Below, piece by piece: positions 20,740-37,194 of a stretch of 64,000 nucleotides of DNA (within the stretch, counting starts at the first letter, position 1; the number at the start of each line of letters is the position of its first letter). The stretch comes from an uncultured Thermoplasmata archaeon (GTDB lineage Archaea > Thermoplasmatota > Thermoplasmata > Lutacidiplasmatales > UBA184). Below the pieces are notes generated by a model. That model did not search any database and was not told where the DNA came from. It worked only from the letters and a program-made list of their open reading frames with translations. Location of the stretch: contig OY970259.1 of the NCBI GenBank assembly GCA_963715645.1, forward strand, positions 1,563,457 through 1,627,456, written 5' to 3'. The position numbers and the translations under genes are program-made.

Positions 20740-21100
20740 GCGCGAGGAGCGCGTCGGGTCCGAGCCATACCTTGAGGGCTCGGTCGATGCGGGGCCAGGG
20801 GGACGGATCGCCTGCGGGATAGCCGAGGTCGGCGAGGTGATCGAGAGCCCAGCGAATCCCCGTCCACTTCCAGTAGACCCCGAGGGGGAGCTTCCGAGGA
20901 GCTGGTCGGGTACGCTCCCTCAGCAGCACCCGGGTCCGTCCGCCCCGACGGATCTCCTCTTGCAACCTCCCGAGGGATCCGGAGGCAGGATCTTCCCCGA
21001 GAACGCGGATACGCGTCTTCCAGCGGATCGACGGCTCGCGCGACCTCAGCAGACGAGCTACGACGTCGCTCCGGGACCCGCAACCCGGACGGGCCCCCTC
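20740..21100 (-). pseudogene. Truncated fragment of an alpha/alpha-toroid (prenyltransferase-repeat-like) protein
   Basis: EPSIRWKTRIRVLGED and VYWKWTGIRWALDHLADLGYP recall the N-terminus of that family, but the frame runs out after about 120 aa. Confidence 0.45.
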
Positions 21101-21325
21101 CTCTTTTGGATACCGCTCCCCGATAGGCAGCCCCGAACCGCGCCGGGAGACAATTTCCCCCGATTGAACGCGCCCGACTCTAGCCGGTATCAACTATTGC
21201 ACTTGTTGGACGCTTCCTAACTAACCCGGAAGGTGCAACAAGCGTCGGACAGACGAAGCCGGGCGACCTAGCCGCTAGAATCGGGCTATAATGAGCAGCC
21301 ATAAGTGAACCGTTAGCTTCGGGGA

Positions 21326-21871
21326 ATGCAGGGACTCAACATGGATTCCGAACTAGAGTTGATTCGTGCGTGGTTCGCTTACCTGGCCGACACGCGGCAG
21401 GGTTACCTCGAGACGCTCGCGAAACTGCCGCCGGCAGAGCTAATCCGCGACAGGGGCGCGTCGCACCCTTCCTTACTCGATATCTTCGCGCACTCTCAAG
21501 GTGCCCTCTACTTCTGGATGAAGGACTGCGCGACGTTTCCGTTCCCGCCGCAGGAGGGTGAATCTGACGCTCCGCCCACTGTCGACGTTTTGAAGAAGGA
21601 CGAGACGTACATCCAGACCCAGATCCGACGGGTCATGGCGGAGCTGACGGAAGCCAACCTCTCACGTACGGTCACCAGAGTGAAGGGGAGGGGGTCGGAC
21701 CATGACTGTCAGGTTCCGGTACGAGACGCGCTGTGGCATCTGGTAGAAGAAGAACTCCAGCATCGTGGTGAACTCAACGCACTCCTCTGGCAGATCGACG
21801 TTAACGCGCCGGTCGTGAGTTGGGTCAAGTGGGCCCACACGGTAGGTCGGATCAAGGACCCACCGTCGTAG
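21326..21871 (+). CDS. DinB family protein
   Basis: SLLDIFAH and ALWHLVEEELQHRGEL metal-binding His pattern. Confidence 0.85.
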   Translation: MQGLNMDSELELIRAWFAYLADTRQGYLETLAKLPPAELIRDRGASHPSLLDIFAHSQGALYFWMKDCATFPFPPQEGESDAPPTVDVLKKDETYIQTQIRRVMAELTEANLSRTVTRVKGRGSDHDCQVPVRDALWHLVEEELQHRGELNALLWQIDVNAPVVSWVKWAHTVGRIKDPPS

Positions 21872-22000
21872 CGGCGAGCGAGCCCAGCGCCCAATCCTGT
21901 GTGCAACAACCTTGCGACCAGTCTGCAAACTCAGTTTTGCGGGCGCGGTGCCCTTCGCACCAGCTGCCACCGGAAGCGGGCTCACCCCCGCGCGCCCTAC

Positions 22001-22279
22001 TCAGTGCTGGGGTGACGAGGGCGAAGAAGCTTGTTGCGCCGCCGCCATCCCCCGCTTGGGGAGGTATCGGTAGACTAGGTAGGCGAGAATGGCAACGTAG
22101 AGAATGACGCCTCCCACGATCGCGAGGATGACGTTTTCCCCGACGCGGGAGGTACCGACGTCCTGGATGTATCCGAGCAGCCCGGACAGGACTATCGTAA
22201 AGACGACCCCCAAGCCGATCTGAAGTGCACTGGGGCGACGCCGATAGAACGCGACCGAGATGAGCCCTGGTAGAATCAT
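22001..22279 (-). CDS. Small membrane protein
   Basis: 92 aa with 2-3 hydrophobic helices. Confidence 0.55.
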   Translation of the reverse strand: MILPGLISVAFYRRRPSALQIGLGVVFTIVLSGLLGYIQDVGTSRVGENVILAIVGGVILYVAILAYLVYRYLPKRGMAAAQQASSPSSPQH

Positions 22280-22445
22280 CCGTCACCGGAGCCGTTACGT
22301 AGTACTATACGAGGTTGGGCCAAACGCGGAACTTTACCGACGTCCAGGGGTCTTCGACCGGTCGATGCGATGATCGGTGGGCAACAACTCTTGCACGCGC
22401 CCGTCAGCCATGGGCGCAAGAGTCGGCACACCCAGTCCTGCCCAA

Positions 22446-23360
22446 TCACTTGGGCGATGGCGATGAGGTGCTGCCACCCAGCCGCATTCGGTAATGAAAC
22501 TCTTTCCGGTAATGCGTGAAACCGAGGCTCTCGTAAAGGTGCTGGGCGAGGATCTTGTCGTCGTCCGTGTCGAGGAAGGCGTCGATTATCCCCCTCTTAC
22601 GGGCGTCGGCCAGAAATCGCTCAATCAGTGCCCTGGCAGGGCCTCTTCTTCGAAACCGGTCGAGGATGTGTAGCTCCTGAAAGTTCGCGTAACGATCCAC
22701 ATTCCGATCGAAATACGGTCTCTTCCCTTCGAACCAGTAGAGGAAGCCCGCGTACTCGCCATTTACTTCAACGACCAGCAGGCCGTCCAGGGGGATGCGA
22801 GAGAGTTTCGAAACATCGCCGAAGGGATCCCAAGGAGTGTCTCCGTGGGCGTATCCGAACACAATGACGTGTCCCTTCATCCTCTTGATGAGTCTCCGCT
22901 CGGCCGCACCCCGTGCGAGATCTCCATTGACCACGGAGCTCACCGTCCCTTGCAGCAGCGAGGCGGCGGCGCCAACCGATACAATGATTAGAGCGATCAA
23001 GAGGCTCGCCTCGGTTCCGTTGAGCGTCCTGAAGTTCCCGCCGTTCGGTGTGCACAACCCAATTGTTGTGATCGTCGAAACCGATGCCAGCGTTGCGTTG
23101 ATGGGCTCCGGATGGTCGTAGTAGGAGAAGACCGCGGCTCCCGAAGCAAACATCGCAGCTGCCACTATCAGTTGTTTGTTGACGTTTCTCGCGAGTACGA
23201 GAGAAGCGTAGAGGGATTGGTGGAGGATGAATCCAATCGTCCGGGAATGGCACTTAAACCTTCGGGGAGGGGCTCGGGTGAAGACCGGGCAGTTCGGCTG
23301 AGGTATGCTCGGGGCAGACCGTACGCATCTTACCCCTTTCTGGTGGGTGATGAGTGTCAA
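22446..23360 (-). CDS. Chimeric ORF: 2-TM potassium-channel pore plus start of RCK, fused in frame to a GNAT domain
   Basis: ASVSTITTIGL pore loop and MKGHVIVFGY (start of TrkA-N), then abruptly YAGFLYW...ILDRFRRRGPARAL...LYESLGF (GNAT). Confidence 0.7.
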   Translation of the reverse strand: MTLITHQKGVRCVRSAPSIPQPNCPVFTRAPPRRFKCHSRTIGFILHQSLYASLVLARNVNKQLIVAAAMFASGAAVFSYYDHPEPINATLASVSTITTIGLCTPNGGNFRTLNGTEASLLIALIIVSVGAAASLLQGTVSSVVNGDLARGAAERRLIKRMKGHVIVFGYAHGDTPWDPFGDVSKLSRIPLDGLLVVEVNGEYAGFLYWFEGKRPYFDRNVDRYANFQELHILDRFRRRGPARALIERFLADARKRGIIDAFLDTDDDKILAQHLYESLGFTHYRKEFHYRMRLGGSTSSPSPK

Positions 23361-23426
23361 TCGACGGCTTGACCCTCCCCGGCGGCAGCCATTGACCCCG
23401 CGAGATCCGTTGGTTTCGATATGCTT

Positions 23427-23765
23427 CTATCCCAACCAGTTCCAGAAATCGTCCCGCCAGAAGTCCACCGACTCGTGGACATGCCGAATCCGCGTCAACT
23501 TCAGCCCTTCCCGCTCGGCGACCTTGAACCGTCTCCGCAATTCCTCAACGGTCTCGTCCGAGAGAGAGTCGAGCAGCCGCTTCAGGTCCCGCTCGATTCC
23601 GATATCGAGGGCACGATCGGGGTGACGGATCACGAGGCGGAAGTGGTGACCCCCCGAACCTTCGACACGCACTACTTGCCAGACAAGCGCCTCCCCGCGC
23701 TCTTGCTCGAGTCGGAAGGCGGCGAGATTACCAATCGCCTCCGCGGTAAAGTTCTCGTCCGTCAA
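23427..23765 (-). CDS. Hypothetical protein
   Basis: 112 aa ORF with globular-protein composition, ending FWRDDFWNWLG. Confidence 0.65.
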   Translation of the reverse strand: MTDENFTAEAIGNLAAFRLEQERGEALVWQVVRVEGSGGHHFRLVIRHPDRALDIGIERDLKRLLDSLSDETVEELRRRFKVAEREGLKLTRIRHVHESVDFWRDDFWNWLG

Positions 23766-23967
23766 CCCGGGCCTCAGATACAGCCCAATCTCGAGTCCGC
23801 GGTGCGTGCGAACCCGAGACCAATTGGGTGGAAACCTCCTTCGGTCCCAGCCATGGGGTCTCGGGGAAGAAGTTCACCATCTCCTTCCGAAGGGGGTGGT
23901 CCGCTGCGCCCGCAAATCCCATACTCTGTATCGTGTCTCACGCCGTATCTCGGGAGGGGAACAAACA

Positions 23968-25909
23968 ACGACGACGAATCCTCCCGGTTCTCCGCCCTCA
24001 AACAGGGCGAGCGCTCTTCCTACCCCTCCTCGGTCCGGCGGTTTCTGGAGCCGGTGGCTCCCGATAGGTCGGCCTTCCGGCACTGCCGCTTGGACGAGCG
24101 TCTATCGCGACCTCGCTCGGTGGGTGGTGATCGCGGTTCCTATTGGAATAGTCGCCGGGCTCGGCGCTGCGCTGTTCTACTACCTCATCAACCTGCTCAC
24201 TGATACGCTGCTGGTTCAGCTGGCCGGATTGACGCTCCCCTCGGAGGGTACGTCCACCCTTTCTCAGCTCACTTGGTCTAGCTCCCTTTCCCCGGATCCT
24301 CATCGTCCCCGCGCTTTTGGTCATCGGCGGGCTCGCAGTGGGGGTCATCGTTTGGGGCGCCGCCCCCGAGGTGGCGGGTCACGGAACCGACGCGACCATC
24401 CGCGCCTTCCACAAGACCGCCGGCAAGGTTCGGGTACGGGTGCCAATCCTGAAGACGATCGCCAGTGCGATCACTCTTGGAACAGGAGGAAGCGGAGGAC
24501 GGGAGGGACCGGTCTCTCAGATCGGGGGCGGGTTCGGGTCGATTTGGTCGGACCTCTTCCGTCTCGGGGCCCGGGACCGACGGATCGCGCTCGCGACCGG
24601 GATGGGCGCGGGTATTGGTGCGATTTTCCGAGCCCCATTGGGTGGAGCGGTCTACTCGGCCGAAATCCTCTACACGGGCGACTTCGAGCCCGAAGTATTC
24701 GTCCCCGCAATCATCGCGTCGGTGGTGGCGTACTCCGTCTACTCCACCATTTTCGGCTTCCACACCCTCTTCGCGACGCCGGCCGCGCTCTCGAGCTACG
24801 CGTTCGACCCGGCCCGGTTACCGCTCTACGCCCTCCTGGGAATCGTGTGCGGTGCTGTCGGAATTTTCTTCGTTTGGATGTACCATCGAACAGACGCGTG
24901 GTTCGCATCGCATCACTGGTCTCCGCTCGTCCGGCCGGCGATTGGGGCGGCGGTCGCCGGAGTGATCTTCCTTGGAGCGTATTTCCTACTTCCAGAACAA
25001 GGACACTTCGCCTCGCTCTCCTCGCTTTCGATCGGGTACGGCTTCGTCCAGGCGGTGATGCTCGGTCAGCTCTCGTCGGGGAGTTTCACGGCGATGGTGT
25101 TCGCGATTCTGCTGGCCGCCGTGTTCCTCCGTATGGTGATGACGTCGTTCGTTGTCGGCAGCGGAGGGAGCGCGGGCCTGTTCGGGACGAGCGTCGTGGT
25201 CGGGGCGTTTCTCGGCACGGTGGTCGGTGGGATTTCTCACAATCTTTTGCCAGGCCTCGTTCCCGTCTCCGTGGTCCCGGTCTTCTCGATCGTCGGGATG
25301 ATGTCGTTCTTCGGCGGGATATCGAAGGCACCGCTCGGGGTGCTGATCATGGTGGTCGAGATGGCCGGCACCTACACGATCCTCCCGGCGGCCATGCTCT
25401 CGATCTTCGTCGCCTACGTTGTGACGGGCCGCACCCACATCTACAGCGAACAGCTGCCGAGCCGCATCCAGAGCCCCGCGCACCAGGAGGAGTACCGAGT
25501 GTACTTCCTTTCTACGACCCCGATCGGCGACATCGCCGCGCACGAGTCCGAGATTGTTCCCCCCTCGATGCGCTTGCGCGAGGCAATCGACATCGCAGTG
25601 GCGAACGGACGCGCGGTACTCTCGGTAGAAGAAGCGGGGTCCTGGATGGGCGCCGTGCGTCTGAGTGACATGCTCGCGGTTCCCCCGGAGCGGATGACTC
25701 AAGTTCGATTGGCAGACCTCATGCGTCCGGTTGAGCTCCTCCTCCCGGCCGACCTCTCCGCCGACGAATCACTTCGCCGGATGGAACAGCAGGGAACGAA
25801 CTTGGCGGCGGTCGTGTCGGTCGAGGGAGCTAGCCGAGTGATCGGCCTCGTGACACGCCGAGGAATCCGGGCCCCCGATCCCAATTCGACGCCCTCTTCG
25901 TCCTCCTAG
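23968..25909 (+). CDS. ClC chloride channel/Cl-:H+ antiporter with C-terminal CBS pair, frameshift near 24290 (start uncertain)
   Basis: PEVAGHG, GSGGREGP (gating glutamate), FRAPLGG, GGSAGLFG and CBS domains. Confidence 0.92.
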
Positions 25910-25960
25910 CGTCTCCCGCGTGGCCGCTCGAAGATCGAGGATCCCCGGGTCCGCGGGACT

Positions 25961-28472
25961 TCACTGAGAGAGATGCCGGTGGCGAGGGTGAAAGAACCAG
26001 CGCCACGGCAGACGGGCAGTTAGCGCGACTCGGGGTTCCCTGTGGACTCTGTTGGCATCGCTGCGATCCAACCACCGGTAGGTCCACTGCTTAGCTTGGT
26101 CCACTAGGAGGATCTCGACCGCCGCATACCCCCAGATGCCGACCACCCACAATGGAGGAACGCGTGGGATAAGCCAGCCCATCAGGGCGAGGAGGGAGGC
26201 GAAGACCTGGGTCCCGATGACGCTCAAGAGCAGTATGTTGGCCGGTCGCGATTTCCAGAACGGTCCCTCGGTGCGGGTCAGGAAGATGACGAAATGTCCA
26301 GCGACCGAGAGTTTGAGATAGAATAGTGTCTGCAGAGGAGCGCCTGAGATGTGAAGGGGACCGACCGCGATCGCCAACAACAGGAACGTAGACGCGACCC
26401 CGGTGATTCCGAGCACGGAGGAGACCCGAAGGATCCGGCCCATCCTCCAAGAAACCGGCGTCGGGGAGATCGGAGTGCGGTCGTACGCGATGGCGAGGAT
26501 CGCGGCGTCGTTGAGCAGGGCAATGAGGACGATTTCGAGCGCTGTAACAGGAAAGAACCCAAGGATGACGATCGTGAGGGTGATGAACAGGAGCAGTCGG
26601 ATCGTCTCCTCGATCCGGTAGATGGCGTACGACGCTCATCCGGGCAAAGGTCTGCCGCGCTTGCCGGATCGCCGTGAGGATCACTCCGAGCCCCGGCGCG
26701 GTCAGCACCACTGCGGCCGCGGACCGAGCCGCATCCGACGCTCCCGAGACTGCGATTCCCGCGTCCGCCTTCTTCAGCGCCGGGGCGTCGTTCACGCCAT
26801 CCCCCGTCATCCCGACGATATGTCCGTGCCGCTGCAGCTGATCGACGATCTCGTACTTGTGCTCCGGGAAAACCTGAGCGAAGACACTCGTCTCTTCGAA
26901 GACTTGGGCCCGCCGTGCCTCCCCCGCGCTGCCGTTCCACTCGTCGGGCGTCGTGACGGCGCCTTCCATCCCTAGTTGGTGGCCGGTCTCTCGCGCGATC
27001 GCCGCCTGGTCGCCTGTTACCATCTTGACCTGCACTCCGAGCGCCCGGATCTCTGCGAGGACTTCCGCGGAGTCCGGCCGTAGCGGGTCGAAGAGGGGGA
27101 TCACACCGAGGAATTCCCACGGCCCGTTGCCGCGGGCCCGCGCGACGCCGAGGGCTCGGTAACCGTGGCGGGCGATCTCCGAGACAGCTGTGTCGAGGGC
27201 GGCCGGTACATTCGCCGCTCCACTGGCGACTGATAGGATGGCTTGCGGAGCCCCCTTGGTCACTCGGAGAGTCGAACCGTCCGGCGCCACCAACGAGGCC
27301 TCGGTGCGCTTGAGGACCGGATCGAACGGCAAGAAACGGGTCACCCGGTGCTTCCCCGCGAGCGCGAGAGCCCCGGGCGATGAGAGGATCGCATCGTCAA
27401 TTGGGTCGTGATCGTCGACTCGGGAGGCCAGGACGGCCGCTTCCAGGACCTCGTCGGCCGTGACGCCCTCGAAGGCGACGGGGCTCCCCATTCGTAGAGC
27501 GTTCTGTGTGAGCGTGCCCGTCTTGTCGGAACAGAGCACGTCGATACCCGCGAGCTCCTCCATTGCTTCGAGTCGAGTAACAATCGCCTTCTCGTCGGCA
27601 AGGGTCCGTGCCCCGACCGCCATGGTGACGGAGAGCACCGTCGGCATGGCCACAGGAATGGCGGCGACGGCGAGTACGAGGGCGAACTGGACAGAAGTGA
27701 GCAGGTTCACGCCACGGGCTACCGAAACGGCCTCGATGACCACCGCGAGGCCGAGGGCGAGCACGATGAGGGTGTCTCCTATACGGAGAATGGCGCGTTG
27801 GAGGTGACTCACGGGCTGCGCCGAGGCGACGAGCTGAGCGGTCCGCCCGAGGAAGGTCTTCGGTCCGATCGACGTTACCGTCGCCGTTCCTTCTCCGCGC
27901 CGGACGATCGACCCCGACAGCGCCGTCTCCCCCGATGAGCGGGAAACGGTGAGCGACTCGCCGGTGAGCGCCGACTGATCGAGCTCGAGCGACGCATCGG
28001 CGAGCAGATGGACGTCCGCGGGGACGATGTCCCCCATCCGTAAACGAATGATGTCTCCCGGAACTAACTCACGGGCCGGAAGGCTGTTCCAAACCGTGTC
28101 GCGCAGCACTCGAGCTTGGGGTGCGAGATGCGCCTTCAGAGCGGCTACCGCGTTCCCAGACTGGTACTCTTCCCAGAATCCGACGGTGGCGTTAACGATG
28201 AGCAGGGTGAGAATGATCGCGAAGTCGTCCCAGTTCTGCAGGACGGCGGCGAGCACTGCCGCCACTTCGATCATCCAGGGGATCGGACCCCAGAGATACG
28301 AGGCGAGCCGGCGCCAGAGGCTTACCCTCCGTTCGGGAATCTCGTTGAAACCCTCTCGCCCTTGACGGCCCCTTACTTCGGAGGACGAGAGTCCCTTCGG
28401 GGGCGTGGCAGGGAGTTGCGAAGCGGGGACCAATTTCGGCGCCTCGGGAGCACTTTCGCTCGTCTGCGGCAA
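25961..28472 (-). CDS. Plasma-membrane-type proton-efflux P-type ATPase (P3A), frameshift near 26635
   Basis: WGPIPWMIE, DQSALTGES, AIPVAMP, CSDKTGTLT, KGAP, TGDGVNDAPALK, IALLND and YLKLSVAGH. Confidence 0.95.
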
Positions 28473-28557
28473 GCCTCCATCGTCCCGAACGCCGATTCCA
28501 CCTAACCCTTCCGAACGAGCTCGTCTCCTAAGCAAAGGCATTCGGGTCGAGGAGGAT

Positions 28558-28744
28558 TGGTTCAGAATCGGAAGATTTGTTCCATGCGTGGCATCGGCAC
28601 CGCCGTTCTCTTCGAATCCGATAAAATGGTGGTTGTTGCGGATTAACAGTTACACAAGCATAGAATCCGAACATCCGTTCCAGGCGTGGCCCCAGCATGA
28701 ACTTCTTTTCGAATCCCCTTCTCGGCTCCACCTTTGCAAGGGGG
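28558..28744 (+). repeat. Dispersed intergenic repeat, copy 1 (two tandem sub-units about 98 bp apart)
   Basis: 28564-28693 aligns with 35512-35642 (shared GTTACACAAGCATAGAATCYGAACATCCGTTC..GGCGTGGCCCC); ends CGGCTCCACCTTTGCAAGGG as at 30870 and 31579. Confidence 0.85.
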
Positions 28745-28868
28745 TGGGTTTTCAAACCGGACGCCGCATCGCGTCCCCTACCCTGCGGACCCGCGCGCAC
28801 CTCGCGGTCGGTCATCGGACGCGCGCGTCCTTTATGAAGCCCGCGCGGAGGCTATTCCTGTACGGGCA

Positions 28869-29576
28869 TCAAGACGCCGCGGCCTCGGTCTTTGCTGGAG
28901 TCGTTCTCGACAGGCTGTAAACCTTCCAGCCGATCAGGAGAGGGAAGATGACAAACGTCAGAAGCGCGGGGAGAGCGAACAAGGCGGAAGTGACCGCAAA
29001 GAGGGAGACCCCGACAAGGCCCACCACTCCAAATACCGCGGTCAATCCGCCAAGGATCTTTCCCACCGCCGGGGCCCCGAACATGGCCACCGCGAGGAGT
29101 ATGAAACCGATTGACAGGAAGATGTACGCGTCGGTATCGAACTGATTGAACATCCCTTGGGTTGCTTGCCACACCTGGACGGCCGCCGCCTGCTGAGCGG
29201 CGGTCGCCCCCGCTGCATGATACTGGTCGGAGATCGGAGCCATGGCGACATTCGGCTCACTTTCAGCCCCCAACACGGCTAGGCCGAGAAAGCTCACGAC
29301 GGTCCCGAACATCGCCGGGGCGAGGCTCGATTTTCGGAGGGCGAAAAAGAGGGCCAGGAAGAGAGGCATCAACAAGACCGTGCCCACGAGGAAGAGCGTT
29401 TGCCCCACGATGATTTGCGTGTGGAGGCCGGGGAAGTTAATGACCGGTGTCGCTCCCGAAGCGGTAGTCGACGTTCCGATGAATGCCACTTGATAGATGA
29501 TACTGACTACGAAGATGACCGCAGCCACCAAACCCGCGATACCTCCCCATTGCAGAACGCTCCTCTCCTGGTCCAT
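28869..29576 (-). CDS. Multi-pass membrane protein (DUF4386-like)
   Basis: WGGIAGL start and about 6 TM helices; divergent from the oxidoreductase. Confidence 0.7.
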   Translation of the reverse strand: MDQERSVLQWGGIAGLVAAVIFVVSIIYQVAFIGTSTTASGATPVINFPGLHTQIIVGQTLFLVGTVLLMPLFLALFFALRKSSLAPAMFGTVVSFLGLAVLGAESEPNVAMAPISDQYHAAGATAAQQAAAVQVWQATQGMFNQFDTDAYIFLSIGFILLAVAMFGAPAVGKILGGLTAVFGVVGLVGVSLFAVTSALFALPALLTFVIFPLLIGWKVYSLSRTTPAKTEAAAS

Positions 29577-29621
29577 GAACTCCCCGACCCCGGAAAGGGT
29601 TACACCGATAAGGAAGTACCT

Positions 29622-30617
29622 GTGAAGGCGATCGTTTGGACGCGCTACGGACCACCGGAGGGTCTTCAGCTCGTAGAGGTTGCGAGACCTACTCCTAAGG
29701 ACAATGAAGTTCTGGTCAGGGTACACGCGACAACAGTAACCGCAGGGGACTGTGAGCTTCGAAGTCTCAAGTTCTCAATCTGGCTCAGGGTCTTCTTTCG
29801 AATCTACATGGGCCTCACCAAGCCACGACGGAAGATACTAGGGCAGGAGCTCGCGGGGGACGTTGAGGAAATCGGCAAAGACGTAAAGCGATTCAAGAGA
29901 GGCGACCAAGTCTTCGGAACAACCGGCTTTGGTTTTGGTGCTTATGCCGAGTTCGACTGTGTCCCCGTGGAATCTCAGACCGCCGTGTTGGCGACAAAGC
30001 CGGCCAACATGACCTACGAGGAAGCCGCCGCCGTTCCCATGGGCGGCCTCGAAGCATTGCGTTTTCTGAGAAGGGGAAACCTTCAACGCGGACAAAGAAT
30101 CCTGATCAATGGCGCGGGTGGAAGCATCGGCACTGTTGCTGTTCAGCTTGCCAAGTACTTCGGGGCTGAGGTGACCGCCGTCGATTGCACGGAAAAACTG
30201 GAAATGCTGCGGTCAATCGGCGCGGACCGGGTCATTGACTACACTCGCGAAAAGTTCACCGAGAGCCGTGAGACCTACGACGCGATTCTCGATCTGGTAG
30301 GTAAGGGCTCGATTCCACACGGCCTGAGAGTGCTGAAGAGCCATGGAAGCTATCTCGAGGCTAACCCGCGTCTATCTTTGATGCTTCGAGGATGGACAAG
30401 TTCGAAGAGAGATGGCAGGAAGGTCATATTCAGAGCACCGAGCCCAACGACCGGAGACTTGGTTTTTCTCAAAGAGCTCATCGAGGCGGGGAGGATTAGG
30501 TCGGTAATCGATAGACGCTATCCTCTCGAGCAAGTTCCCGAGGCGCACCGCTACGTCGAATCGGGCCATGCTCGAGGAAAAGTAATCATCGTGGTGGAAC
30601 AGAACGGCATCACCTGA
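29622..30617 (+). CDS. NAD(P)-dependent MDR oxidoreductase (quinone-reductase-like)
   Basis: YGPPEGL, GAYAE, INGAGGSIGT, GADRVIDY and GHARGKVII. Confidence 0.9.
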   Translation: MKAIVWTRYGPPEGLQLVEVARPTPKDNEVLVRVHATTVTAGDCELRSLKFSIWLRVFFRIYMGLTKPRRKILGQELAGDVEEIGKDVKRFKRGDQVFGTTGFGFGAYAEFDCVPVESQTAVLATKPANMTYEEAAAVPMGGLEALRFLRRGNLQRGQRILINGAGGSIGTVAVQLAKYFGAEVTAVDCTEKLEMLRSIGADRVIDYTREKFTESRETYDAILDLVGKGSIPHGLRVLKSHGSYLEANPRLSLMLRGWTSSKRDGRKVIFRAPSPTTGDLVFLKELIEAGRIRSVIDRRYPLEQVPEAHRYVESGHARGKVIIVVEQNGIT

Positions 30618-30746
30618 TCGTGCCGAATCTAGGAGGCGGGAGCAATCCTGCCTGCGTCGTTCTTCGCTGTTCTTCATCGACCATTGCGGTGTGTTCCCCA
30701 ACGGGCTGGTTGCTTACTCGCGAAGGACCAGTCCGCCCGCTCTCAC

Positions 30747-30873
30747 GGTTTTCTTACGGGGGATGGGATAAGGGGGGGTCGCTAGACCGGGAGCTCTAGT
30801 GATCTGAGAGGGTCGGTACAGAATCGGACGTTTCGTTCCGAGCCCCTCTTCGGCTCCGCCTTTGCAAAGGGGT
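30747..30873 (+). repeat. Dispersed intergenic repeat, copy 2
   Basis: Contains CCGGGAGCTCTAG, GATCTGAGAGGGTCGGTACAGAATCGG (compare 61993-62017) and GTTCCGAGCCCC..CGGCTCCGCCTTTGCAAAGGG. Confidence 0.75.
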
Positions 30874-30876
30874 CCA

Positions 30877-31365
30877 TTAGTGTCCCTTCGCCGGCCGTCC
30901 CGCTCGATAGTCGGCCTCGCAGGCCGCCACAAATCGGGCCCAAGTGGCCGCTATTTGTGCGCGAAGTTCTTCCTTCGTCGGATGGTCGGGCGTGAGCCAG
31001 CGCTCGGTGGAGAGCAGATGAAGGCGGGTCCGCGCTCGGCCCATCGCGGTAACACGATAATCTAGCGACTGCCGATCGGTCTCGTCGATCTGATCGAGAT
31101 GCCAGGAGCGCGGCGGATTGAGACGCACCAGGTCGACGGCGATCGCGGGGTCGCGACCGAGCCCCCGGGCCACGCGGATGCGGACCACGCGGCGCGGCGA
31201 AACTCGGATCAATCGAAACGTCGGACGAGGACGCCTCTTCGAGAACCGCGAGTCACTGGTCCGGTAGTCCGTGCACCACTCGTACACGTATCGCGAAGGA
31301 GCGCGGATCGATAGTGACAAGCGAACCCGGGTGGTACCGTACAACCGGTGGCCCCGTTCGGCCAT
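30877..31365 (-). CDS. Hypothetical protein (SRPBCC/START-like fold possible)
   Basis: IRAPSRYVYEWCTDY N-terminus and WARFVAACE C-terminal helix. Confidence 0.65.
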   Translation of the reverse strand: MAERGHRLYGTTRVRLSLSIRAPSRYVYEWCTDYRTSDSRFSKRRPRPTFRLIRVSPRRVVRIRVARGLGRDPAIAVDLVRLNPPRSWHLDQIDETDRQSLDYRVTAMGRARTRLHLLSTERWLTPDHPTKEELRAQIAATWARFVAACEADYRAGRPAKGH

Positions 31366-31438
31366 GGGGAGCGGAAATCGGGGGTTCGACTTAAGCGCTC
31401 GTTGCCCAGTTAGGGGCCATCGAGTCGACCGTTCACAC

Positions 31439-31581
31439 CGTCTTCTAACGAGGGGTTTGTGTAATGGAGGGTGTGCCCCACCCGTGAGCTTCCGTCGCCC
31501 CTCGATCACCTTGTTAGGACGCCGGTCTAGAATCCGAAGATTCTTTCCGAGCCCCCGCCGGGCTCCACCTTTGCAAAGGGC
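31439..31581 (+). repeat. Dispersed intergenic repeat, copy 3
   Basis: TTCTAACGAGGGGTTTGTGTAA...CCCCTCGATC...GTCTAGAATCCGAAGATT aligns with 34603-34715; ends GGCTCCACCTTTGCAAAGGG. Confidence 0.85.
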
Positions 31582-31660
31582 GTGCCTTTTGTGCGGCGTG
31601 GGGTGTGGGTTCCCCGGACGCCCTGGCGTGGGCACGAACCCAGACCCCTGCGCGTCGCCG

Positions 31661-33652
31661 CTAAGGTGGCAGCCGGCCCAAATTCGTAGTCACCCGCCTC
31701 GGAATGCCGGTCGGGAGCTTCATGGCCCGGAGCAAGGCCACGAAGCGTGGCTCATCGCGGATTGGATCTAGGAACTCGGACTGATAGTAGTTCCACAGAA
31801 TCCTGTCCCCTTCCTGGAAGTCCTGTTCGAGGTGGGCCAGTGCCTTCTCCTTCTCTCCTTGCATGGCATACAAGAGGGCAGGCCCTCCCGCGGGGATGTA
31901 CCCGGGAAGGCGACCTTCCTCCAGATCGGCTGCCAGTGCTTTGCCCTCTTCCGGCCTTCCCAGGAAGGCGAAAAGCCCTGCCCGGAACAATCGAGCCATT
32001 AAGCTATGGGTTGTCGACATTGAGTCCAACGCCCTGAGGGCTTCGTCGACCCGGCCCGCGAGCGCATAAGCGATTGCGAGCGCGACCAGAACGGCGCCGG
32101 GTCCGGCAAAACTTTCCTTCAGTGTCTCGCCCATCCGGATCGCGGACTCTAGATCGCCGGTGTTCAGGTACGACCATGCCAGCTGCAGCCGGGGCAGAAG
32201 CCAAACAGGATCCAGCTCGATGGCTCTCCGGTTCTGTTCTCTTGCCTCGTCATTTCGCTGCAGGACCCCAAGCAAGTAGCCATACCAGAAGTGAGCCGTT
32301 GGACTGCTCGGGTTGAGCTCGATGCCCTTCCGGAACTCCGCTTCGGACCGAGGCCAGTCCAGATCACCTTGCATCGCGATATTGCCGAGCGCAATGTGAG
32401 CATCGGACGAGTTTGGATTCAGTTCGAGCGCCTTAGCCACCAGCACCCTGGCGCGGGGCAAAACTGCCCTTCCGGAGAGAGTAACGCCCAACGCGGCAAT
32501 GAGATGGTTGGCGAGGTAGGAGTAGGCCGCGGAGAATTGAGGGTCCTGTCGAATAGCCTCCTCAAAGTATTCCGAAGTCTCTCGATCGGCCTCTTCGCTC
32601 GCGGACCCTCCATAACGTTGGAACGCTTGGATTCCTCGCAGATAGGATTCGTACGCGACAAGGCTCGACGTTGGCTTCTCGTGAAGGGCCTCCCGCTCCG
32701 AACTCAGCAGCGCGACTCGGAGCGCACCAGCCGTCCGTTCCGCAACATCCGCTTGGATCGCGAACACGTTCTCGAGCTTGCGGTCGTAGGTCATCGCCCA
32801 TCGATGTTCCTCGGTCTGAGCGTCGATCAGCTGCACCGTGATCCGCAGCTGATTGTCGGCCTTTCGAACGCTCCCCTCCAGCACCGTGCTGACATTCAGC
32901 TCCAACCCGATCTGGGCGATCGTCTTCGAGGTGCCCTTGTACTGGCTCACGGACGTCCGTGCGATAACCCGAAGTCCGCGGATCTGGGACAGAACTGAGA
33001 TGAGTTCTTCCGTTAGACCGTCTGCGAAGTACTCGTCCTTCGGGTCCGGGCTGATGTTTGCCAGCGGAAGGACCGCGAGACGCGGAAGCAACTCCCCCTC
33101 TGCCCTCCTGTTGCCTCCGGTCCAGGGCAAGACGACACGGTACAGGTCGATGGGGAACCGCACGTTCTTGAGCGTCTTCGGTTCCAGTTTCTCGAGACCG
33201 TTCGGAATTTTGTTCCGGACCTGTCCGAACACCGGGTCGGTGATGCAGATCCCGCCCGGGTCGGCCAGCGCTTCGACCCGAGAAGCGATGTTCACCGAGT
33301 CCCCGACGATGTCGTTTCCTTCGTGCACCACGTCTCCCAAGTGGATCCCAATCCGAAGCCGTATCTTGGACGCGTCCGGGGCGGAGAGATTGTGCTCGTG
33401 GAGCATACGCTGGATCTCGACCGCGCACTGAACACCCTGGAGGGCACTGTCAAACTCCACCAGGAACCCGTCGCCCATTGATTTGACCTCGCGACCCCGG
33501 TGAGTGGCGAAAAGGGGACGAACGAGTCTCTGTTGCTGCCCACGCACCCGGAGTGCCGTGGCCTCATCCTCCTGGGCGGAGGCGGTGGAACCCACCATGT
33601 CGGTAAACATGATGGCGGCGAGTCTTCGGGTAGAGGCCACGACCCGAAACAT
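31661..33652 (-). CDS. Class III adenylate/guanylate cyclase with TolB-like domain and TPR repeats
   Basis: RRLAAIMFTDMVGST, KSMGDG, RIGIHLGD, GDSVNIASR; LAVLPLANIS..YFADGLTEELI; TPRs. Confidence 0.93.
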   Translation of the reverse strand: MFRVVASTRRLAAIMFTDMVGSTASAQEDEATALRVRGQQQRLVRPLFATHRGREVKSMGDGFLVEFDSALQGVQCAVEIQRMLHEHNLSAPDASKIRLRIGIHLGDVVHEGNDIVGDSVNIASRVEALADPGGICITDPVFGQVRNKIPNGLEKLEPKTLKNVRFPIDLYRVVLPWTGGNRRAEGELLPRLAVLPLANISPDPKDEYFADGLTEELISVLSQIRGLRVIARTSVSQYKGTSKTIAQIGLELNVSTVLEGSVRKADNQLRITVQLIDAQTEEHRWAMTYDRKLENVFAIQADVAERTAGALRVALLSSEREALHEKPTSSLVAYESYLRGIQAFQRYGGSASEEADRETSEYFEEAIRQDPQFSAAYSYLANHLIAALGVTLSGRAVLPRARVLVAKALELNPNSSDAHIALGNIAMQGDLDWPRSEAEFRKGIELNPSSPTAHFWYGYLLGVLQRNDEAREQNRRAIELDPVWLLPRLQLAWSYLNTGDLESAIRMGETLKESFAGPGAVLVALAIAYALAGRVDEALRALDSMSTTHSLMARLFRAGLFAFLGRPEEGKALAADLEEGRLPGYIPAGGPALLYAMQGEKEKALAHLEQDFQEGDRILWNYYQSEFLDPIRDEPRFVALLRAMKLPTGIPRRVTTNLGRLPP

Positions 33653-33819
33653 GCCCCGGTTAGATTAAGGCGCACCCTGCGCGGACAGTTCCTGTCAGGG
33701 GTTTGAAACCAGCATCTTGGATAGGTCGGGCTCCATTCCCCAGACGGATGACCTCGGTCCAACGACGGGGTCGGGTAACCCTTGGATATCCCGTCGGAGG
33801 CAGCTCGGCGTCCTGCGGT

Positions 33820-33925
33820 ACCATGAACTGAACGGATGGGAGATTCGCACCCCCTAGAGCTCCCCGGTGGTTCGTTGATGTATGCCGCACTCCTTCGTGG
33901 ATCACCCTTTTGGAAAGCGGTGGAT
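33820..33925 (-). repeat. Degenerate inverted copy of the intergenic repeat
   Basis: Reverse complement contains CCACCGCTTTCCAAAAGGG, CCGGGGAGCTCTAG and GAATCTCCCATCCGTTC, resembling sub-motifs of the other copies. Confidence 0.5.
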
Positions 33926-33970
33926 TGTTCGAGGTAGGGTAGTGTCCGGGGTCGTCGCCCTTCCGCGGGT

Positions 33971-34414
33971 TTAGGCCTTGTAACCCGTCAGCCGAATCTC
34001 TCCTTTGGCTAAGTTCGCCGTACCGGTCGCCCACACTTGAATCGAGTTCACCCAAGCATGAGCGGGCGAGTTGGACTTCAACGTCACGCTTTCCCGAAGC
34101 TGGAGGATCCCGTTCGCATCGAGAGTACCCAATCCGTCCGCAAACAACGACACCTTTCCCCCGTCCTTCAACTCGAGCCGGGCGTGGCCGTGGAGCTCGA
34201 TTCGTCCGTCGGCGCGAATGTTGAGGTAGTCCACGGAGTGGAAAGATCCCTTCAGCTTAGGTCCGTCGACCGTGCCTTCGACCCTACCATCGAAGCGGGC
34301 GCCCGCGGGAGGGGGAGCGCTCTTTCCCTCCAGGATGGCTTGGATGCTCGCCCCGTCCTCATCTGTCCCCGTCATGCGCCCCATGATGTCAAAGATCAGC
34401 TCGGCCGATTCCAT
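33971..34414 (-). CDS. DUF3237-like beta-barrel protein
   Basis: GPKLKG, DYLNIRADG and HAWVNSIQVWATG. Confidence 0.7.
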   Translation of the reverse strand: MESAELIFDIMGRMTGTDEDGASIQAILEGKSAPPPAGARFDGRVEGTVDGPKLKGSFHSVDYLNIRADGRIELHGHARLELKDGGKVSLFADGLGTLDANGILQLRESVTLKSNSPAHAWVNSIQVWATGTANLAKGEIRLTGYKA

Positions 34415-34602
34415 GTGCGTTTCCCAACGGGTTCACGATTAAAGTCATGTCGACGCCCCCACGCCCGCCTGGCCCCGTTCCCCACGGCGACGTCCGGCAC
34501 CCCGCCGGTTCGGCAGGGTCGGTGTAGCGGCAAGCGGGCCGTTGCCGGCGTTTAGAAAGGGCTCGTTTCCTAGCGGGAGCTCATTGGGTCGGCGGCTCCC
34601 AC

Positions 34603-34720
34603 CCTTTTCTAACGAGCGGGTTGTGTAACGGGGGGGTCCTCGCCCTGACGCTCATCTTCCCCTCGATCGCCTCGTTCCGGGACTTGTCTAGAATCGAAAG
34701 ATTTGTTCAGAGCCTGGCAT
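34603..34720 (+). repeat. Dispersed intergenic repeat, copy 4
   Basis: Colinear with 31439-31555; its 3' part AGAATCGAAAGATTTGTTC..GCCTGGCAT also matches 28564-28594. Confidence 0.85.
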
Positions 34721-34856
34721 GGGGTCAGAACCTCGACTCTCGTCGTTGGAGCATTGGGGCCCCGAACCAGGTCAGGAGAGGGGCAGGCCAATCGATACCT
34801 AGGATCACCTAAGCTTCATATATCGATGCCAACCTCACTTAGCAGGGGGACCAACG

Positions 34857-35072
34857 ATGGAGACGGTGACCGTATCGTCGAAGTATCAGGTTGTGATCCC
34901 CGAGAAGATTCGGCGTCACCACGGTATTCGCCCAGGGGACAAACTCGCGGTGATCGTCAAGCACGGGGTGGTGCATCTGGTTCCCGTCCGCCCGTTCGAC
35001 GCGTCGAAAGGCATGTTCAAGGAATCCAAAGTCGACAATCGTGACCTCCGCGACCGCACGGACCGCTTCTAG
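34857..35072 (+). CDS. vapB: AbrB/MazE-type antitoxin
   Basis: VTVSSKYQVVIPEKIR...IRPGDKL. Confidence 0.9.
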   Translation: METVTVSSKYQVVIPEKIRRHHGIRPGDKLAVIVKHGVVHLVPVRPFDASKGMFKESKVDNRDLRDRTDRF

Positions 35073-35460
35073 CGAAGGAGGCGGAAGTACGATCAGCATC
35101 GATAGCCATGGGTGGATCGAGCGGCTGCTCGAAGGCCCCAGGGCCCCTTCGTACAATCGCGCCTTCTCGAGTGTCCCTCCCTCGGATATCGTGACCTCGG
35201 TGGTTACCGTATACGAGGTCTACAAGAAACTCAGACCGATGAAGGGCGAGTCGGCGGCCCTTGAGGCGATCGTGCACCTTCGCGCGACCACGTTGGTCCC
35301 CTTCGACGACCAGCTGGCCTTAGAGGCCGCAGATTACTCACTTTCTCTTCACCTCCACTTCTCGGACGCCATCATCTACGCGACGGCCCGAAGGTTCGGG
35401 GCCGAGCTCCACACTAGTGACCCTGAACTTCGCGGCAAGCCCGGAGTCGTCTTTCACTGA
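35041..35460 (+). CDS. vapC: PIN-domain toxin
   Basis: IDSHGWIE, TVYEV, FSDAIIYATA and TSD; overlaps the antitoxin gene. Confidence 0.9.
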   Translation: MTSATARTASSEGGGSTISIDSHGWIERLLEGPRAPSYNRAFSSVPPSDIVTSVVTVYEVYKKLRPMKGESAALEAIVHLRATTLVPFDDQLALEAADYSLSLHLHFSDAIIYATARRFGAELHTSDPELRGKPGVVFH

Positions 35461-35506
35461 TAGGCCCCGCTGGAGACCGTGGCGGAACCTTTGGTACCCG
35501 GTGCAT

Positions 35507-35642
35507 TGGCGCGTGATTGGAAGAATCGTTCCATGCCGGGCCTGAGTACCGCCAACTTCTTCGAATCCCAGAAAACGGAGGTTGTTACGGGTTAACCGTT
35601 ACACAAGCATAGAATCTGAACATCCGTTCGAGGCGTGGCCCC
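35507..35642 (+). repeat. Dispersed intergenic repeat, copy 5
   Basis: About 130 bp colinear with 28564-28693, including TTCGAATCC and GGTTGTTRCGGRTTAACMGTTACACAAGCATAGAATC. Confidence 0.88.
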
Positions 35643-35859
35643 GAATTCGAGCCCCGAGGGGGTCGAATCTCGTAGGAGAGTTAGACTAAATGGAAGAGCC
35701 AAGGGAGGGAATTGAGGAAAAGTTCGAATCCCGCCGAAAGCCCGGGTGAGGGCGGTTTCCGTCCCACCCAGATCTATGCGGTTGGGCGTAAGCCCGTATC
35801 CAGTCACATCGCCCGCGTTGCAAAAGGAACCCTTTGCACAATGTTCAGAAAGCGGTGCC

Positions 35860-36087
35860 TTAACGACCGCCGGGATACGCACTGCCTGGCTTCATGTCGT
35901 CCAGGTTCGGCGCCGTTAGCATCCCATCAGGCGTGTGGCAGATCGGGCATCTTCGGCCTCTCTTAACCGCCCAGTAGATGATTCCCGGAATGATGAACAG
36001 GATTAGCAGGACGATCAGGATCCCGAGGCTGTAGCCTGGCTCGGTGTTCACGTTCCGCTTGCAAGCGGGGCACCACTTCATCGTCAT
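35860..36087 (-). CDS. Small membrane-anchored zinc-ribbon protein (LITAF-like CxxC-TM-CxxC)
   Basis: CPAC, hydrophobic stretch ILIVLLILFIIPGIIYW, then CPIC. Confidence 0.7.
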   Translation of the reverse strand: MTMKWCPACKRNVNTEPGYSLGILIVLLILFIIPGIIYWAVKRGRRCPICHTPDGMLTAPNLDDMKPGSAYPGGR

Positions 36088-36188
36088 CTCATTCCACCAA
36101 ATCTGGCGAGGGGACCCCGTCGGTGTACTTAAACGTCCGGAATCGGGCTCTTTGTGGAGGGACCCAGTCCTTCTTCGTAGGCTTTGAC

Positions 36189-36216
36189 CCATTTCTAACC
36201 AGAGGGTTCTCTATGG
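36189..36216. repeat. 28-bp imperfect palindromic site of the repeat family, downstream of tRNA-Cys
   Basis: CCATTTCTAAC-CAGAGG-GTTCTCTATGG; similar to 34603-34630 and 31439-31466. Confidence 0.6.
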
Positions 36217-36383
36217 GCTCCTTTGACAATCTCCAGTTTTGAGAAGGGTCAACCCTGCGGCGGCTGAACTCCGACTTTCACAAGGGACCCTTTTCCGATT
36301 GCCTTCCCGCCTCCTTGAATCAGGCAGAATCCAATCGCGCATGTGGGGCGGGACAATATCTCAACCACACCCGCAGAAATTCC

Positions 36384-36456
36384 AGCCAAGGGAGGGAATC
36401 GAACCCCCAGGAAGCGGATCTGCAGTCCGCCGCATTAACCATTCTGCCACCTTGGC
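36384..36456 (-). tRNA. tRNA-Cys(GCA)
   Basis: Reverse complement GCCAAGGTGGCAGAATGG...GCGGA-CTGCAGA-TCCGC...GGTTCGATTCCCTCCCTTGGCT; anticodon GCA, discriminator U. Confidence 0.95.
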
Positions 36457-36480
36457 GCGGCCGGAGCGAAGAGACCTCGG

Positions 36481-36487
36481 CTTAAAG
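36481..36487 (-). promoter_or_regulatory. Archaeal TATA box for tRNA-Cys
   Basis: CTTTAAG 25-31 nt upstream of the tRNA. Confidence 0.6.
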
Positions 36488-36513
36488 CGCTCGGGGCAGA
36501 TGGAGGCGACGAC

Positions 36514-37194
36514 CTACACGGACCGGAAGCCGCGGGCGAGGAACTTCCCGGCGTTCGTGACCCCGAGGCGGAACCGGCCCCTCCACGGGAGGGAGCGTCC
36601 TCCGGGAAGCGTTTGTCGCCGCCGGAGCGCCTCGAGGAGGTCGTCCACCCCGGTGGAGGTATCCGGGAAGTTGGTGAACGCCCGTCCCAGGTCTGCCAGC
36701 GCATGGACATCGCTCCCTCCGGTCGCCGCAAGGGTCCGACGAGCCGCCAGGAGCTCCGCCTTCAGGTTCGATACCTCGGAGTTGTGCCCATTCCGCGTCT
36801 CGATCCCATCCGCGCGGGCCGACTCCGCGACCCGGCGCCCTACCCCGTGGCGCAGTCGGAAGGGGTGCGCGATCACCGACTCTCCGCCGTGGGCCCGGAC
36901 CCATTCGATCGACTCGACGATAGGTCGGTGGGCGGGAGGGAGTTCGGAGACGCCATACGCGAGGAGGTGGCCCTCCAAGGTCGAGATCTCGACCCCGGGC
37001 AGGAAGACGTACCCTGGGTAAGCGCGGGCCAGCTCGGCAAGCTCGGCGTGACCCGCGATGGAGTTGTGGTCGGTGAGCGCGAACCCCCGAAGCCCCGTGT
37101 AGCCGAGCCGTTGTCCGATCGCCGCGACGGGGAGGGAACAGTCCGGCGAGTGGCGGGAGTGCACGTGCAAGTCGAGCCGGAGGTCGGTCGTCAC
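36514..37194 (-). CDS. PHP-domain metallophosphoesterase
   Basis: DLHVHS, LTDHN, GVEIST..GH, AHPF and GGSDVH. Confidence 0.9.
   Translation of the reverse strand: MTTDLRLDLHVHSRHSPDCSLPVAAIGQRLGYTGLRGFALTDHNSIAGHAELAELARAYPGYVFLPGVEISTLEGHLLAYGVSELPPAHRPIVESIEWVRAHGGESVIAHPFRLRHGVGRRVAESARADGIETRNGHNSEVSNLKAELLAARRTLAATGGSDVHALADLGRAFTNFPDTSTGVDDLLEALRRRQTLPGGRSLPWRGRFRLGVTNAGKFLARGFRSV

Follow-up and report, generated by a model that had tools for sequence, protein, structure and literature searches.

The stretch of DNA analysed here, 64,000 nt from an uncultured Thermoplasmata archaeon (assembly GCA_963715645.1, contig OY970259.1, positions 1,563,457 to 1,627,456) and called the window below, contains seven co-oriented repeat units that delimit five to six gene cassettes. 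The genome to which it belongs (G000; other G-numbers denote genomes and L-numbers loci) is a single contig of 2,182,341 bp with a G+C content of 67.6%, and its archaeal identity is supported by a score of 1490 bits with the archaeal small-subunit (SSU) model. The original prediction had parsed a 28-bp part of the repeats as six dif-like sites with 11-6-11 geometry (28558, 28656, 30814, 31523, 34684 and 35605) plus a degenerate one at 35507, and had proposed that they may be crossover sites or scars. Each repeat belongs to a longer unit that, where complete, incorporates the 3' end of tRNA-Leu(CAA), and the units are probably att-type junctions (arm-core-arm) of integrase-less cassettes inserted serially at the 3' end of that tRNA gene.

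Repeat units and cassettes of the window

All six sites were found where predicted, every one on the plus strand. The pattern AGAATCNNANNWTYNNTTC, abstracted from these six sites and allowing at most one mismatch, matched the window six times, whereas dinucleotide shuffles gave a mean of 0.06 matches and two at most, with none of 100 reaching six. Across the entire genome the same pattern matched six times on the plus strand, never on the minus strand, and nowhere outside the window. The degenerate site at 35507 was recovered by nhmmer (E=3.4e-8) and by the sequence-only model R1 with filters off (E=1.2e-8), and R1 found seven matches in the window, the next best having an E-value of 0.41. A profile of the seven window copies revealed five extra copies in the genome (513873, 514760, and 516987 on the plus strand, 1761281 and 1978650 on the minus strand), giving a total of 12 units, of which seven are in the window. 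All copies of the unit are intergenic.

The conserved unit is ~55 nt long rather than 28, and its flanks are conserved on both sides. It begins with a cassette-side arm, TAGAATC-CGAAGA-TTCGTTCC, followed by GCCTGGCCCCGGCA, and with the copies of relatives aligned the conserved block reads ..GGT-TAGAATC-CGAAGA-TTCGTTCC-nn-GCCTGGCCCCGGCAT. In an alignment of 21 copies, 19 of the 55 columns are invariant or at least 90% conserved, nearly all of them within the unit. The last 21 nt, GTTC-N4-CCTGGCCCCGGCA, reproduce the 3' end of tRNA-Leu(CAA), reaching from the T-loop up to the discriminator base. The sole tRNA-Leu(CAA) gene of the genome is located at 512535-512617 and has the matching end GTTCAAATCCTGGCCCCGGCA; three of the extra copies follow 1.3-4.4 kb downstream of it and share its orientation. 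Roughly 40-130 nt 3' of the core are also conserved in many copies, and they are similar to the sequence that now follows the genuine tRNA-Leu.

The 28-mer is not a self-contained core site, being composed of the cassette-side arm, with two GAWTC pentamers 10 bp apart, and the first bases of the tRNA-identical block. The earlier parse overlooked the conservation that continues 3' into GCCTGGCCCCGGCA, the tRNA derivation of GCCTGGCCCCGGCA, and the five copies elsewhere in the genome. The partial dyad that it described is present but short, since only the inner four positions of each arm are consistent. Among 57 anchored sites in the 11-6-11 parse, drawn from 60 family copies of several genomes, complementarity extends to 4.75 of the 11 arm positions on average (shuffles: mean 2.93, maximum 3.46 in 1000); the inner four positions are complementary in 49, 35, 40, and 48 sites, whereas the outer seven pair in just 4-34. 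The unit arm was also considered as a relic of a tRNA anticodon arm and this was rejected, the local alignment not being significant (69 of 500 shuffles equal its score).

The leftmost cassette encodes a P-type cation ATPase (26091-28541, minus strand; Pfam E1-E2_ATPase, 4.2e-45) and is followed by unit 1 (site 28558; 28546-28600, plus strand), which has an intact arm and a degenerate core, GCGTGGCATCGGCAC (nhmmer E=2.7e-11; R1 44.8 bits). Unit 1 forms the first half of a double unit of 143 nt (28551-28693, plus strand) that recurs at 78-86% identity in G003, G008, G041, G056, G104, and L085. Unit 2 (site 28656; 28644-28760, plus strand) joins the arm to a near-complete tRNA-Leu 3'-end core, GCGTGGCCCCAGCAT, after which comes a conserved downstream arm, TTCGAATCCCC..CTCGGCTCCACCTTTGCAAGGGGG, resembling the sequence 3' of the genuine tRNA-Leu. 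Beyond it is a two-gene cassette (28869-30617) in which Pfam recognises a DUF4386 membrane protein on the minus strand and a zinc-type alcohol dehydrogenase on the plus strand. In unit 3 (site 30814; 30802-30880, plus strand; R1 34.1 bits) the arm is fused to the distal downstream arm, and ~32 nt that include the tRNA-like core are deleted relative to full-length copies, leaving the unit crippled.

The next cassette (30877-31365, minus strand) holds one small gene of an uncharacterised family with no Pfam match; the list of open reading frames (ORFs) gives this gene as 30877-31635, and the end at 31365 results from reading an internal ATG as the start. A type-B upstream arm (31393-31510) together with unit 4 (site 31523) occupies 31393-31590 on the plus strand and belongs to repeat families D3 and D4; unit 4 has a core deletion as in unit 3, and 31397-31548/31553 matches the arrays of other genomes at 72-80%. 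The cassette that follows (31661-34414, minus strand) encodes an adenylate cyclase-TPR protein and a DUF3237 protein, both recognised with Pfam. Another type-B upstream arm with unit 5 (site 34684; 34557-34726, plus strand), whose core is mutated to GCCTGGCATGGGG, has the VapBC cassette starting immediately 3' of it, where a VapB-like antitoxin and a PIN-domain (VapC-like) toxin are encoded (34857-35460, plus strand; MazE_antitoxin 5e-11, PIN 8.5e-12). A second double unit (35495-35647, plus strand) then comprises the degenerate unit 6 (35507) and unit 7 (35605), scoring 30.7 and 38 bits with R1. It is a 143-nt direct repeat of 28551-28693 with 80% identity (family D2), and it is 89% identical to the double unit of G003, which adjoins tRNA-Leu. 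In total, the tRNA-like core is mutated or deleted in five of the seven window units, and with several of them decayed or coreless the window units are largely scars.

Arrays downstream of tRNA-Leu

Model R1 gave 64 matches in 23 of 101 genomes of the genus, G000 counted, and the tRNA-Leu gene was located in 88 of the 101. When the unit and tRNA-Leu tables were cross-matched by hand, 32 of the 64 matches were found downstream of tRNA-Leu on the same contig and strand, 30 of them within 12 kb, and these represent 17 of the 23 unit-positive genomes; some genome tallies include G019, G109, and G088, which are flagged as unpublished and are excluded from the loci analysed. Genome G001 has six units over 7.3 kb below its tRNA-Leu, and the same arrangement is present in loci L093, L131, and L136 of public metagenome-assembled genomes and in metagenome loci L225, L228, L236, and L251. 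Units are co-oriented in every multi-unit locus, including all 13 multi-unit metagenome loci. Outside the genus, a sister genus has the unit in two of the five genomes examined; searches of 13 genomes from five further genera in the family and of six genomes from two further families in the order gave no match. In a scan of public contigs the hits among the matches listed were mostly chance bacterial ones, and the Thermoplasmata rows alone were used. Viral contigs scanned for the motif gave no matches.

The spacing between units is mostly 0.7-3.4 kb, with a maximum of 6 kb, and the blocks so enclosed contain one to four genes in either orientation. Their cargo includes transporters, TetR regulators, acetyltransferases, dehydrogenases, hydrolases, toxin-antitoxin pairs, and adenylate cyclase-TPR proteins. 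The adenylate cyclase-TPR gene (31661-33652 in the window) is the commonest cargo and occurs in six array loci (the others being L051, L054, L226, L230, and L006), with two copies in the array of G001. A gene for the RNase P Rpr2 subunit is conserved upstream of tRNA-Leu, and synteny with nine other genomes persists upstream of the tRNA and ends at its 3' end. At the most distal units of four arrays, similarity is lost immediately after GGCA, the end of the tRNA, as expected of an arm-core-chromosome junction. In G011 (L032 1501-1651) a predicted tRNA-Ile(GAT), which may be a secondary target, is followed after 27 nt by a unit that shares its orientation.

Shared cassettes, recombinase genes, and the tRNA-Cys island

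Window cassettes recur in other genomes, where their order is different. The block with the DUF4386 and dehydrogenase genes (29306-30712) has 92.5% DNA identity to G104 over 1407 nt, and the small uncharacterised gene with its unit (30866-31553) has 89% to G041 and 88% to L112. The 5' end of the ATPase gene with unit 1 is 83% identical to G010 over the 584 nt compared, and the G010 homologue lies between two units of the tRNA-Leu array. The VapBC block is 80% identical to G082 over 657 nt; there the genuine tRNA-Leu 3' end leads straight into it, with no cassette before it. Core genes (PHP and MetRS, 2.9 kb) are just 70-75% identical to G104 (75%), G010, G041, and G003, the genomes covered by this baseline, G082 having no core match.

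Blocks bounded by units are also absent or replaced in metagenomes, where the comparison was with contigs of diverged relatives at shares of at most 0.14, the uncovered parts carrying no information. In contigs from two metagenome runs of two studies, position 31543 is joined to 34705, and the 3161 nt missing between them are exactly the cyclase/DUF3237 block. The X6 contig has 76 other letters in place of the 769-nt block of the small uncharacterised gene. A 7.4-kb contig passes from the dehydrogenase block to unit 4 without unit 3 and without that small gene, and another has a double-unit arrangement resembling that of G003. The suggestion that the sites are crossover sites or scars was therefore broadly right, given that the gene blocks between them vary in presence and order among other genomes and metagenomes, and that the sites include a directly repeated tRNA 3' end, which is the classic target of tyrosine integrases.

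No tyrosine recombinase was detected in 61 array loci (551 kb) with a hidden Markov model (HMM) that detected 11 of 11 control integrases. The model was built from the integrases of the genus itself, with five of the controls outside the training set; a frame of L005 from the wrong strand was among the training sequences, and all controls were detected nonetheless. Pfam scans of ~180 ORFs in and around the arrays yielded no integrase or resolvase, the only recombination-type genes being one DDE transposase and two IS110-family transposases, and a screen of recurrent uncharacterised array proteins as hidden recombinases gave no candidate that stands out. Cassettes of 0.7-1.3 kb are too small for any integrase gene. 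In the whole genomes of G000, G001, G003, G008, G010, and G092, the PF00589 matches are all far from the arrays. One XerA-like gene of ~310 aa is found in each genome examined; G000 has one (311 aa; L001:1456-2391, minus strand) in addition to four other tyrosine recombinases, and no match to the SSV-type integrase family PF16795. With no recombinase nearby, exchange would depend on a recombinase acting in trans or on general recombination between units.

A family of 324-aa integrases (L003:1390-2364, minus strand), present in 50 of 100 other genomes of the genus, was considered as a partner of the units and rejected, its presence in 16 of the 23 genomes with units and 35 of the 78 without being a weak, non-independent contrast. 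In G051 an integrase is encoded 5.6 kb downstream of tRNA-Leu; neither a second tRNA-end repeat nor a unit was found in the 14 kb examined there, where the ORF filter missed the integrase frame.

Other mobile-element features were noted in G000 and its relatives. An IS110-family transposase gene abuts a unit on the upstream side and points away from it in G000 (L008 9349-10518) and in G008 (L054 8738-9826). The G000 element is 1355 bp long (L008 9299-10652; genome ~1761298-1762651), its left end resembles ATCGGCCGCGCG, a motif recurrent in cassette arms, and a second copy at ~1735506 has no unit beside it. Near-perfect 11-6-11 palindromes, GGATTCGAACA-N6-TnTTCGAATCC, occur at 1037080 and 1041483, 4.4 kb apart, in T-loop-like sequence just downstream of tRNA-Arg(GCG) at 1036070, and may be the sites of another tRNA-linked element. 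A further palindrome, GGAGACATATA-GTCTAC-TATATGCCTCC, is located at 1225201 near two tyrosine recombinase genes (1201137 and 1221163). Marker genes put the completeness of G000 at only 53.8% despite its single 2.18-Mb contig, and the tRNAs predicted with ARAGORN number just 33, several of them with unusual lengths; the lineage may be poorly served by the marker set or by the tRNA models.

The window array is part of a low-GC island. From 21 to 37 kb the window has 58-64% G+C, compared with 68-72% around it, and this stretch (~21000-37000) carries genes for a DinB-like protein, a GNAT protein, a CLC channel, and the ATPase as well as the array. In G001 the tRNA-Cys gene follows 676 nt after the CLC gene, whereas in the window 10.4 kb lie between the two, made up of the ATPase, the array, and a small islet. 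The tRNA-Cys gene (36384-36456; ARAGORN and Rfam) and a direct repeat of its 3' end (35697-35717; family D13) together span 35697-36456 on the minus strand. The repeat is 17-21 nt long, with two matches against none expected, and gene and repeat flank a 0.67-kb islet with one ORF (35860-36192) that matches no Pfam family. It constitutes another tRNA-end islet, independent of the first, and marks the boundary of the array-bearing island. A pseudogenised integrase of the 324-aa family is located ~1.6 kb from tRNA-Cys in G007, with a Leu-type unit 21 kb beyond. The window array probably came within a larger element or by secondary insertion.

Origin of the units and competing explanations

Cassettes of 0.7-6 kb with one to four accessory genes would have been inserted successively at the tRNA-Leu 3' end, each insertion leaving a co-oriented unit between neighbouring cassettes, and recombination of unit with unit would then delete, move, or reorder cassettes. 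The array in the window would be a secondary one, located within a low-GC island that was inserted next to tRNA-Cys. We infer that exchange is site-specific and catalysed by a recombinase encoded elsewhere, with the crossover presumably inside the tRNA-identical block GTTC..CCTGGCCCC.

Several observations weigh against this account. No recombinase could be linked to the sites, which makes site-specific exchange a deduction and not an observation, and the units share 55-190 nt of similarity, over which homologous recombination could yield the same joints. The joints come from diverged contigs and were placed partly by the core deletion of unit 4, leaving the crossover itself unmapped, and no empty and occupied pair from near-identical strains was found. 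The cassette of the small uncharacterised gene has a left boundary in G041 that is not a unit. Half of the 64 matches (32) are away from tRNA-Leu or on different contigs, which calls for secondary insertion, carriage on larger elements, or assembly breaks; the window array itself is 1.08 Mb from tRNA-Leu, near tRNA-Cys instead.

The reading of the 28-mers as core sites of the host XerA, with the cassettes as Xer-exploiting elements (IMEX, pdif modules), was compared with a predicted chromosomal dif. A de novo search started from ATAA-N6-TTAT, which we take to be the inner dif motif, and found two matches in G000, one of them within the palindrome GTGTATAA-CACGAG-TTATACGC at 1111417-1111438. 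The extended form GTATAA-N6-TTATAC is single-copy in G000 (position 1,111,417); with up to two mismatches allowed, 18 of 40 other genomes of the genus have one match apiece and reversed controls have none, making it the best candidate for the chromosomal dif of the lineage, as predicted from its sequence. GC skew is flat in G000, and Cdc6 genes are located at 1.96 and 0.535 Mb. A matrix of the candidate from 11 genomes scores 43.9 bits at its own site and 8.1 bits at the next best position, whereas the seven units score -27 to -42 bits and rank 4,078th or worse among 2.18 million positions; they have no sequence likeness to GTATAA-N6-TTATAC. Only four of the 11 positions per arm, the inner ones, are symmetric. 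The poor matrix scores and the short dyad indicate that the units are not dif-like, and a short 11-6-11 dyad is by itself insufficient to identify dif. Passages of a review lead one to expect dif as a single copy with 11-6-11 geometry (PMC8371274), and the units number 12.

An Xer-based origin is nonetheless consistent with the inner GAAT/ATTC dyad and the 6-bp spacer, with the single ~310-aa XerA-like gene of each genome examined and the lack of another recombinase near the arrays, and with the ability of archaeal XerA proteins to integrate DNA in vitro without cofactors, as described in passages of the same review (PMC8371274). Insertion, however, is at a tRNA 3' end and not at dif. The sites are moreover co-oriented, whereas pdif sites alternate in orientation, and with the dif comparison these points make the Xer explanation very unlikely. 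General homologous recombination between passive patches, that is, duplicated pieces of the tRNA-Leu flank between which cassettes are swapped without a dedicated enzyme, accords with some of the data: recombinases are found in none of the 61 loci, units with their arms share up to 160-190 nt, and the joints fall within the shared segment. Neutral patches should have decayed, and the strong conservation of the unit, across species with 70-75% core identity and into a second genus, argues against them. Strict co-orientation with the tRNA and homology ending at the last base of the tRNA are hallmarks of site-specific integration, and we consider passive patches unlikely.

A cis-regulatory or RNA element (operator, promoter, terminator, or small RNA) would fit the intergenic position of all copies, the resemblance of the two GAWTC pentamers, one helical turn apart, to a protein-binding site, and the GC hairpin followed by a T-run in the downstream arm of unit 2. 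Unit orientation is constant while the adjacent genes point either way, distances to gene starts vary, and site 30814 lies between convergent gene ends. At gathering scores Rfam found three tRNAs and no match to the units, single-strand DNA folds of the units (eight folds; z -1.4 to +1.4) were not better than shuffles, and stem mismatches in the unit alignment are not compensated. A regulatory or RNA role is hence highly improbable. The same is true of transposable-element ends or targets, such as a miniature inverted-repeat transposable element (MITE) or an IS110-family target site. An IS110-family gene does abut a unit in G000 and G008, but the second G000 copy of the insertion sequence (IS) is not beside a unit and the IS is present in none of 29 metagenome loci. 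The units also have no terminal inverted repeats and, unlike transposon ends, contain a tRNA end.

Serial insertion of cassettes at tRNA-Leu is most readily compared with arrays in tRNA-gene islands, which contain att relics and cis-mobilisable elements. Tandem integration at one tRNA and loss of the integrase gene are known in archaea, according to passages of two papers (PMC8371274, PMC6563490). As in such islands, there is a direct repeat of the tRNA 3' end at each junction, and the region after the tRNA is hypervariable with accessory cargo; the units are co-oriented, and half of the 64 matches, though not those of the window array, lie downstream of the tRNA. The elements here differ in being as small as 0.7 kb with one gene, in keeping an integrase at none of the 61 loci, and in having an element-side arm that is highly conserved across species and one genus boundary. 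The occurrence of the same cassettes in different order suggests mobilisation in trans, not decay of self-sufficient elements.

Integrons and CALINs (attC clusters without IntI) have been reported in Archaea (PMC9668308), in passages that mention neither tRNA nor Thermoplasmat*. The arrays resemble them in their small cassettes of accessory genes, with a conserved recombination site closing each one and all sites co-oriented, with the integrase often not nearby and with cassettes common to several species. The units differ from attC, the core motif of which is GTTRRRY/RYYYAAC, as they have no hairpin, no GTTRRRY in the consensus, and a partly tRNA-derived sequence. The head of the array is tRNA-Leu instead of intI/attI, with no PF00589 match near it, and the genes occur in both orientations in cassettes that often have two to four genes. 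Xer modules (IMEX, Acinetobacter pdif) are similar in their short sites with an inner dyad and a ~6-bp spacer, in their gene modules bounded by sites, and in their dependence on a recombinase encoded elsewhere, which for the units is presumed; unlike them, the units have asymmetric arms, are co-oriented, are targeted to a tRNA end, and have no likeness to the dif candidate of the genus. In the literature searched we found no account of tRNA-anchored arrays in which single-gene cassettes lack an integrase and have a conserved arm, which does not disprove that one exists.

The units probably represent tRNA-targeted site-specific accretion with integron-like behaviour. A wider proposal, which we make tentatively and hold to be possible but rather doubtful, is that they constitute an integron-like platform for gene capture, with the tRNA-Leu(CAA) 3' end as fixed insertion point, portable arm-core-arm sites, a recombinase acting in trans to insert, excise, and shuffle the cassettes, and exchangeable stores of accessory genes that would pass between species and genera; possible enzymes for it are the universal XerA and the 324-aa integrase family. 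The pairing of a unit with the tRNA-Leu end offers a concrete, testable substrate for finding the recombinase. On a conservative reading, the arrays show how far accretion at a tRNA can be pared down, namely to modules of one gene with a strongly conserved site. If the cassettes do move in trans, archaea would have a form of modular gene exchange without an integron integrase or attC, and the hypervariability of this locus in an abundant soil lineage that is uncultured would be accounted for.

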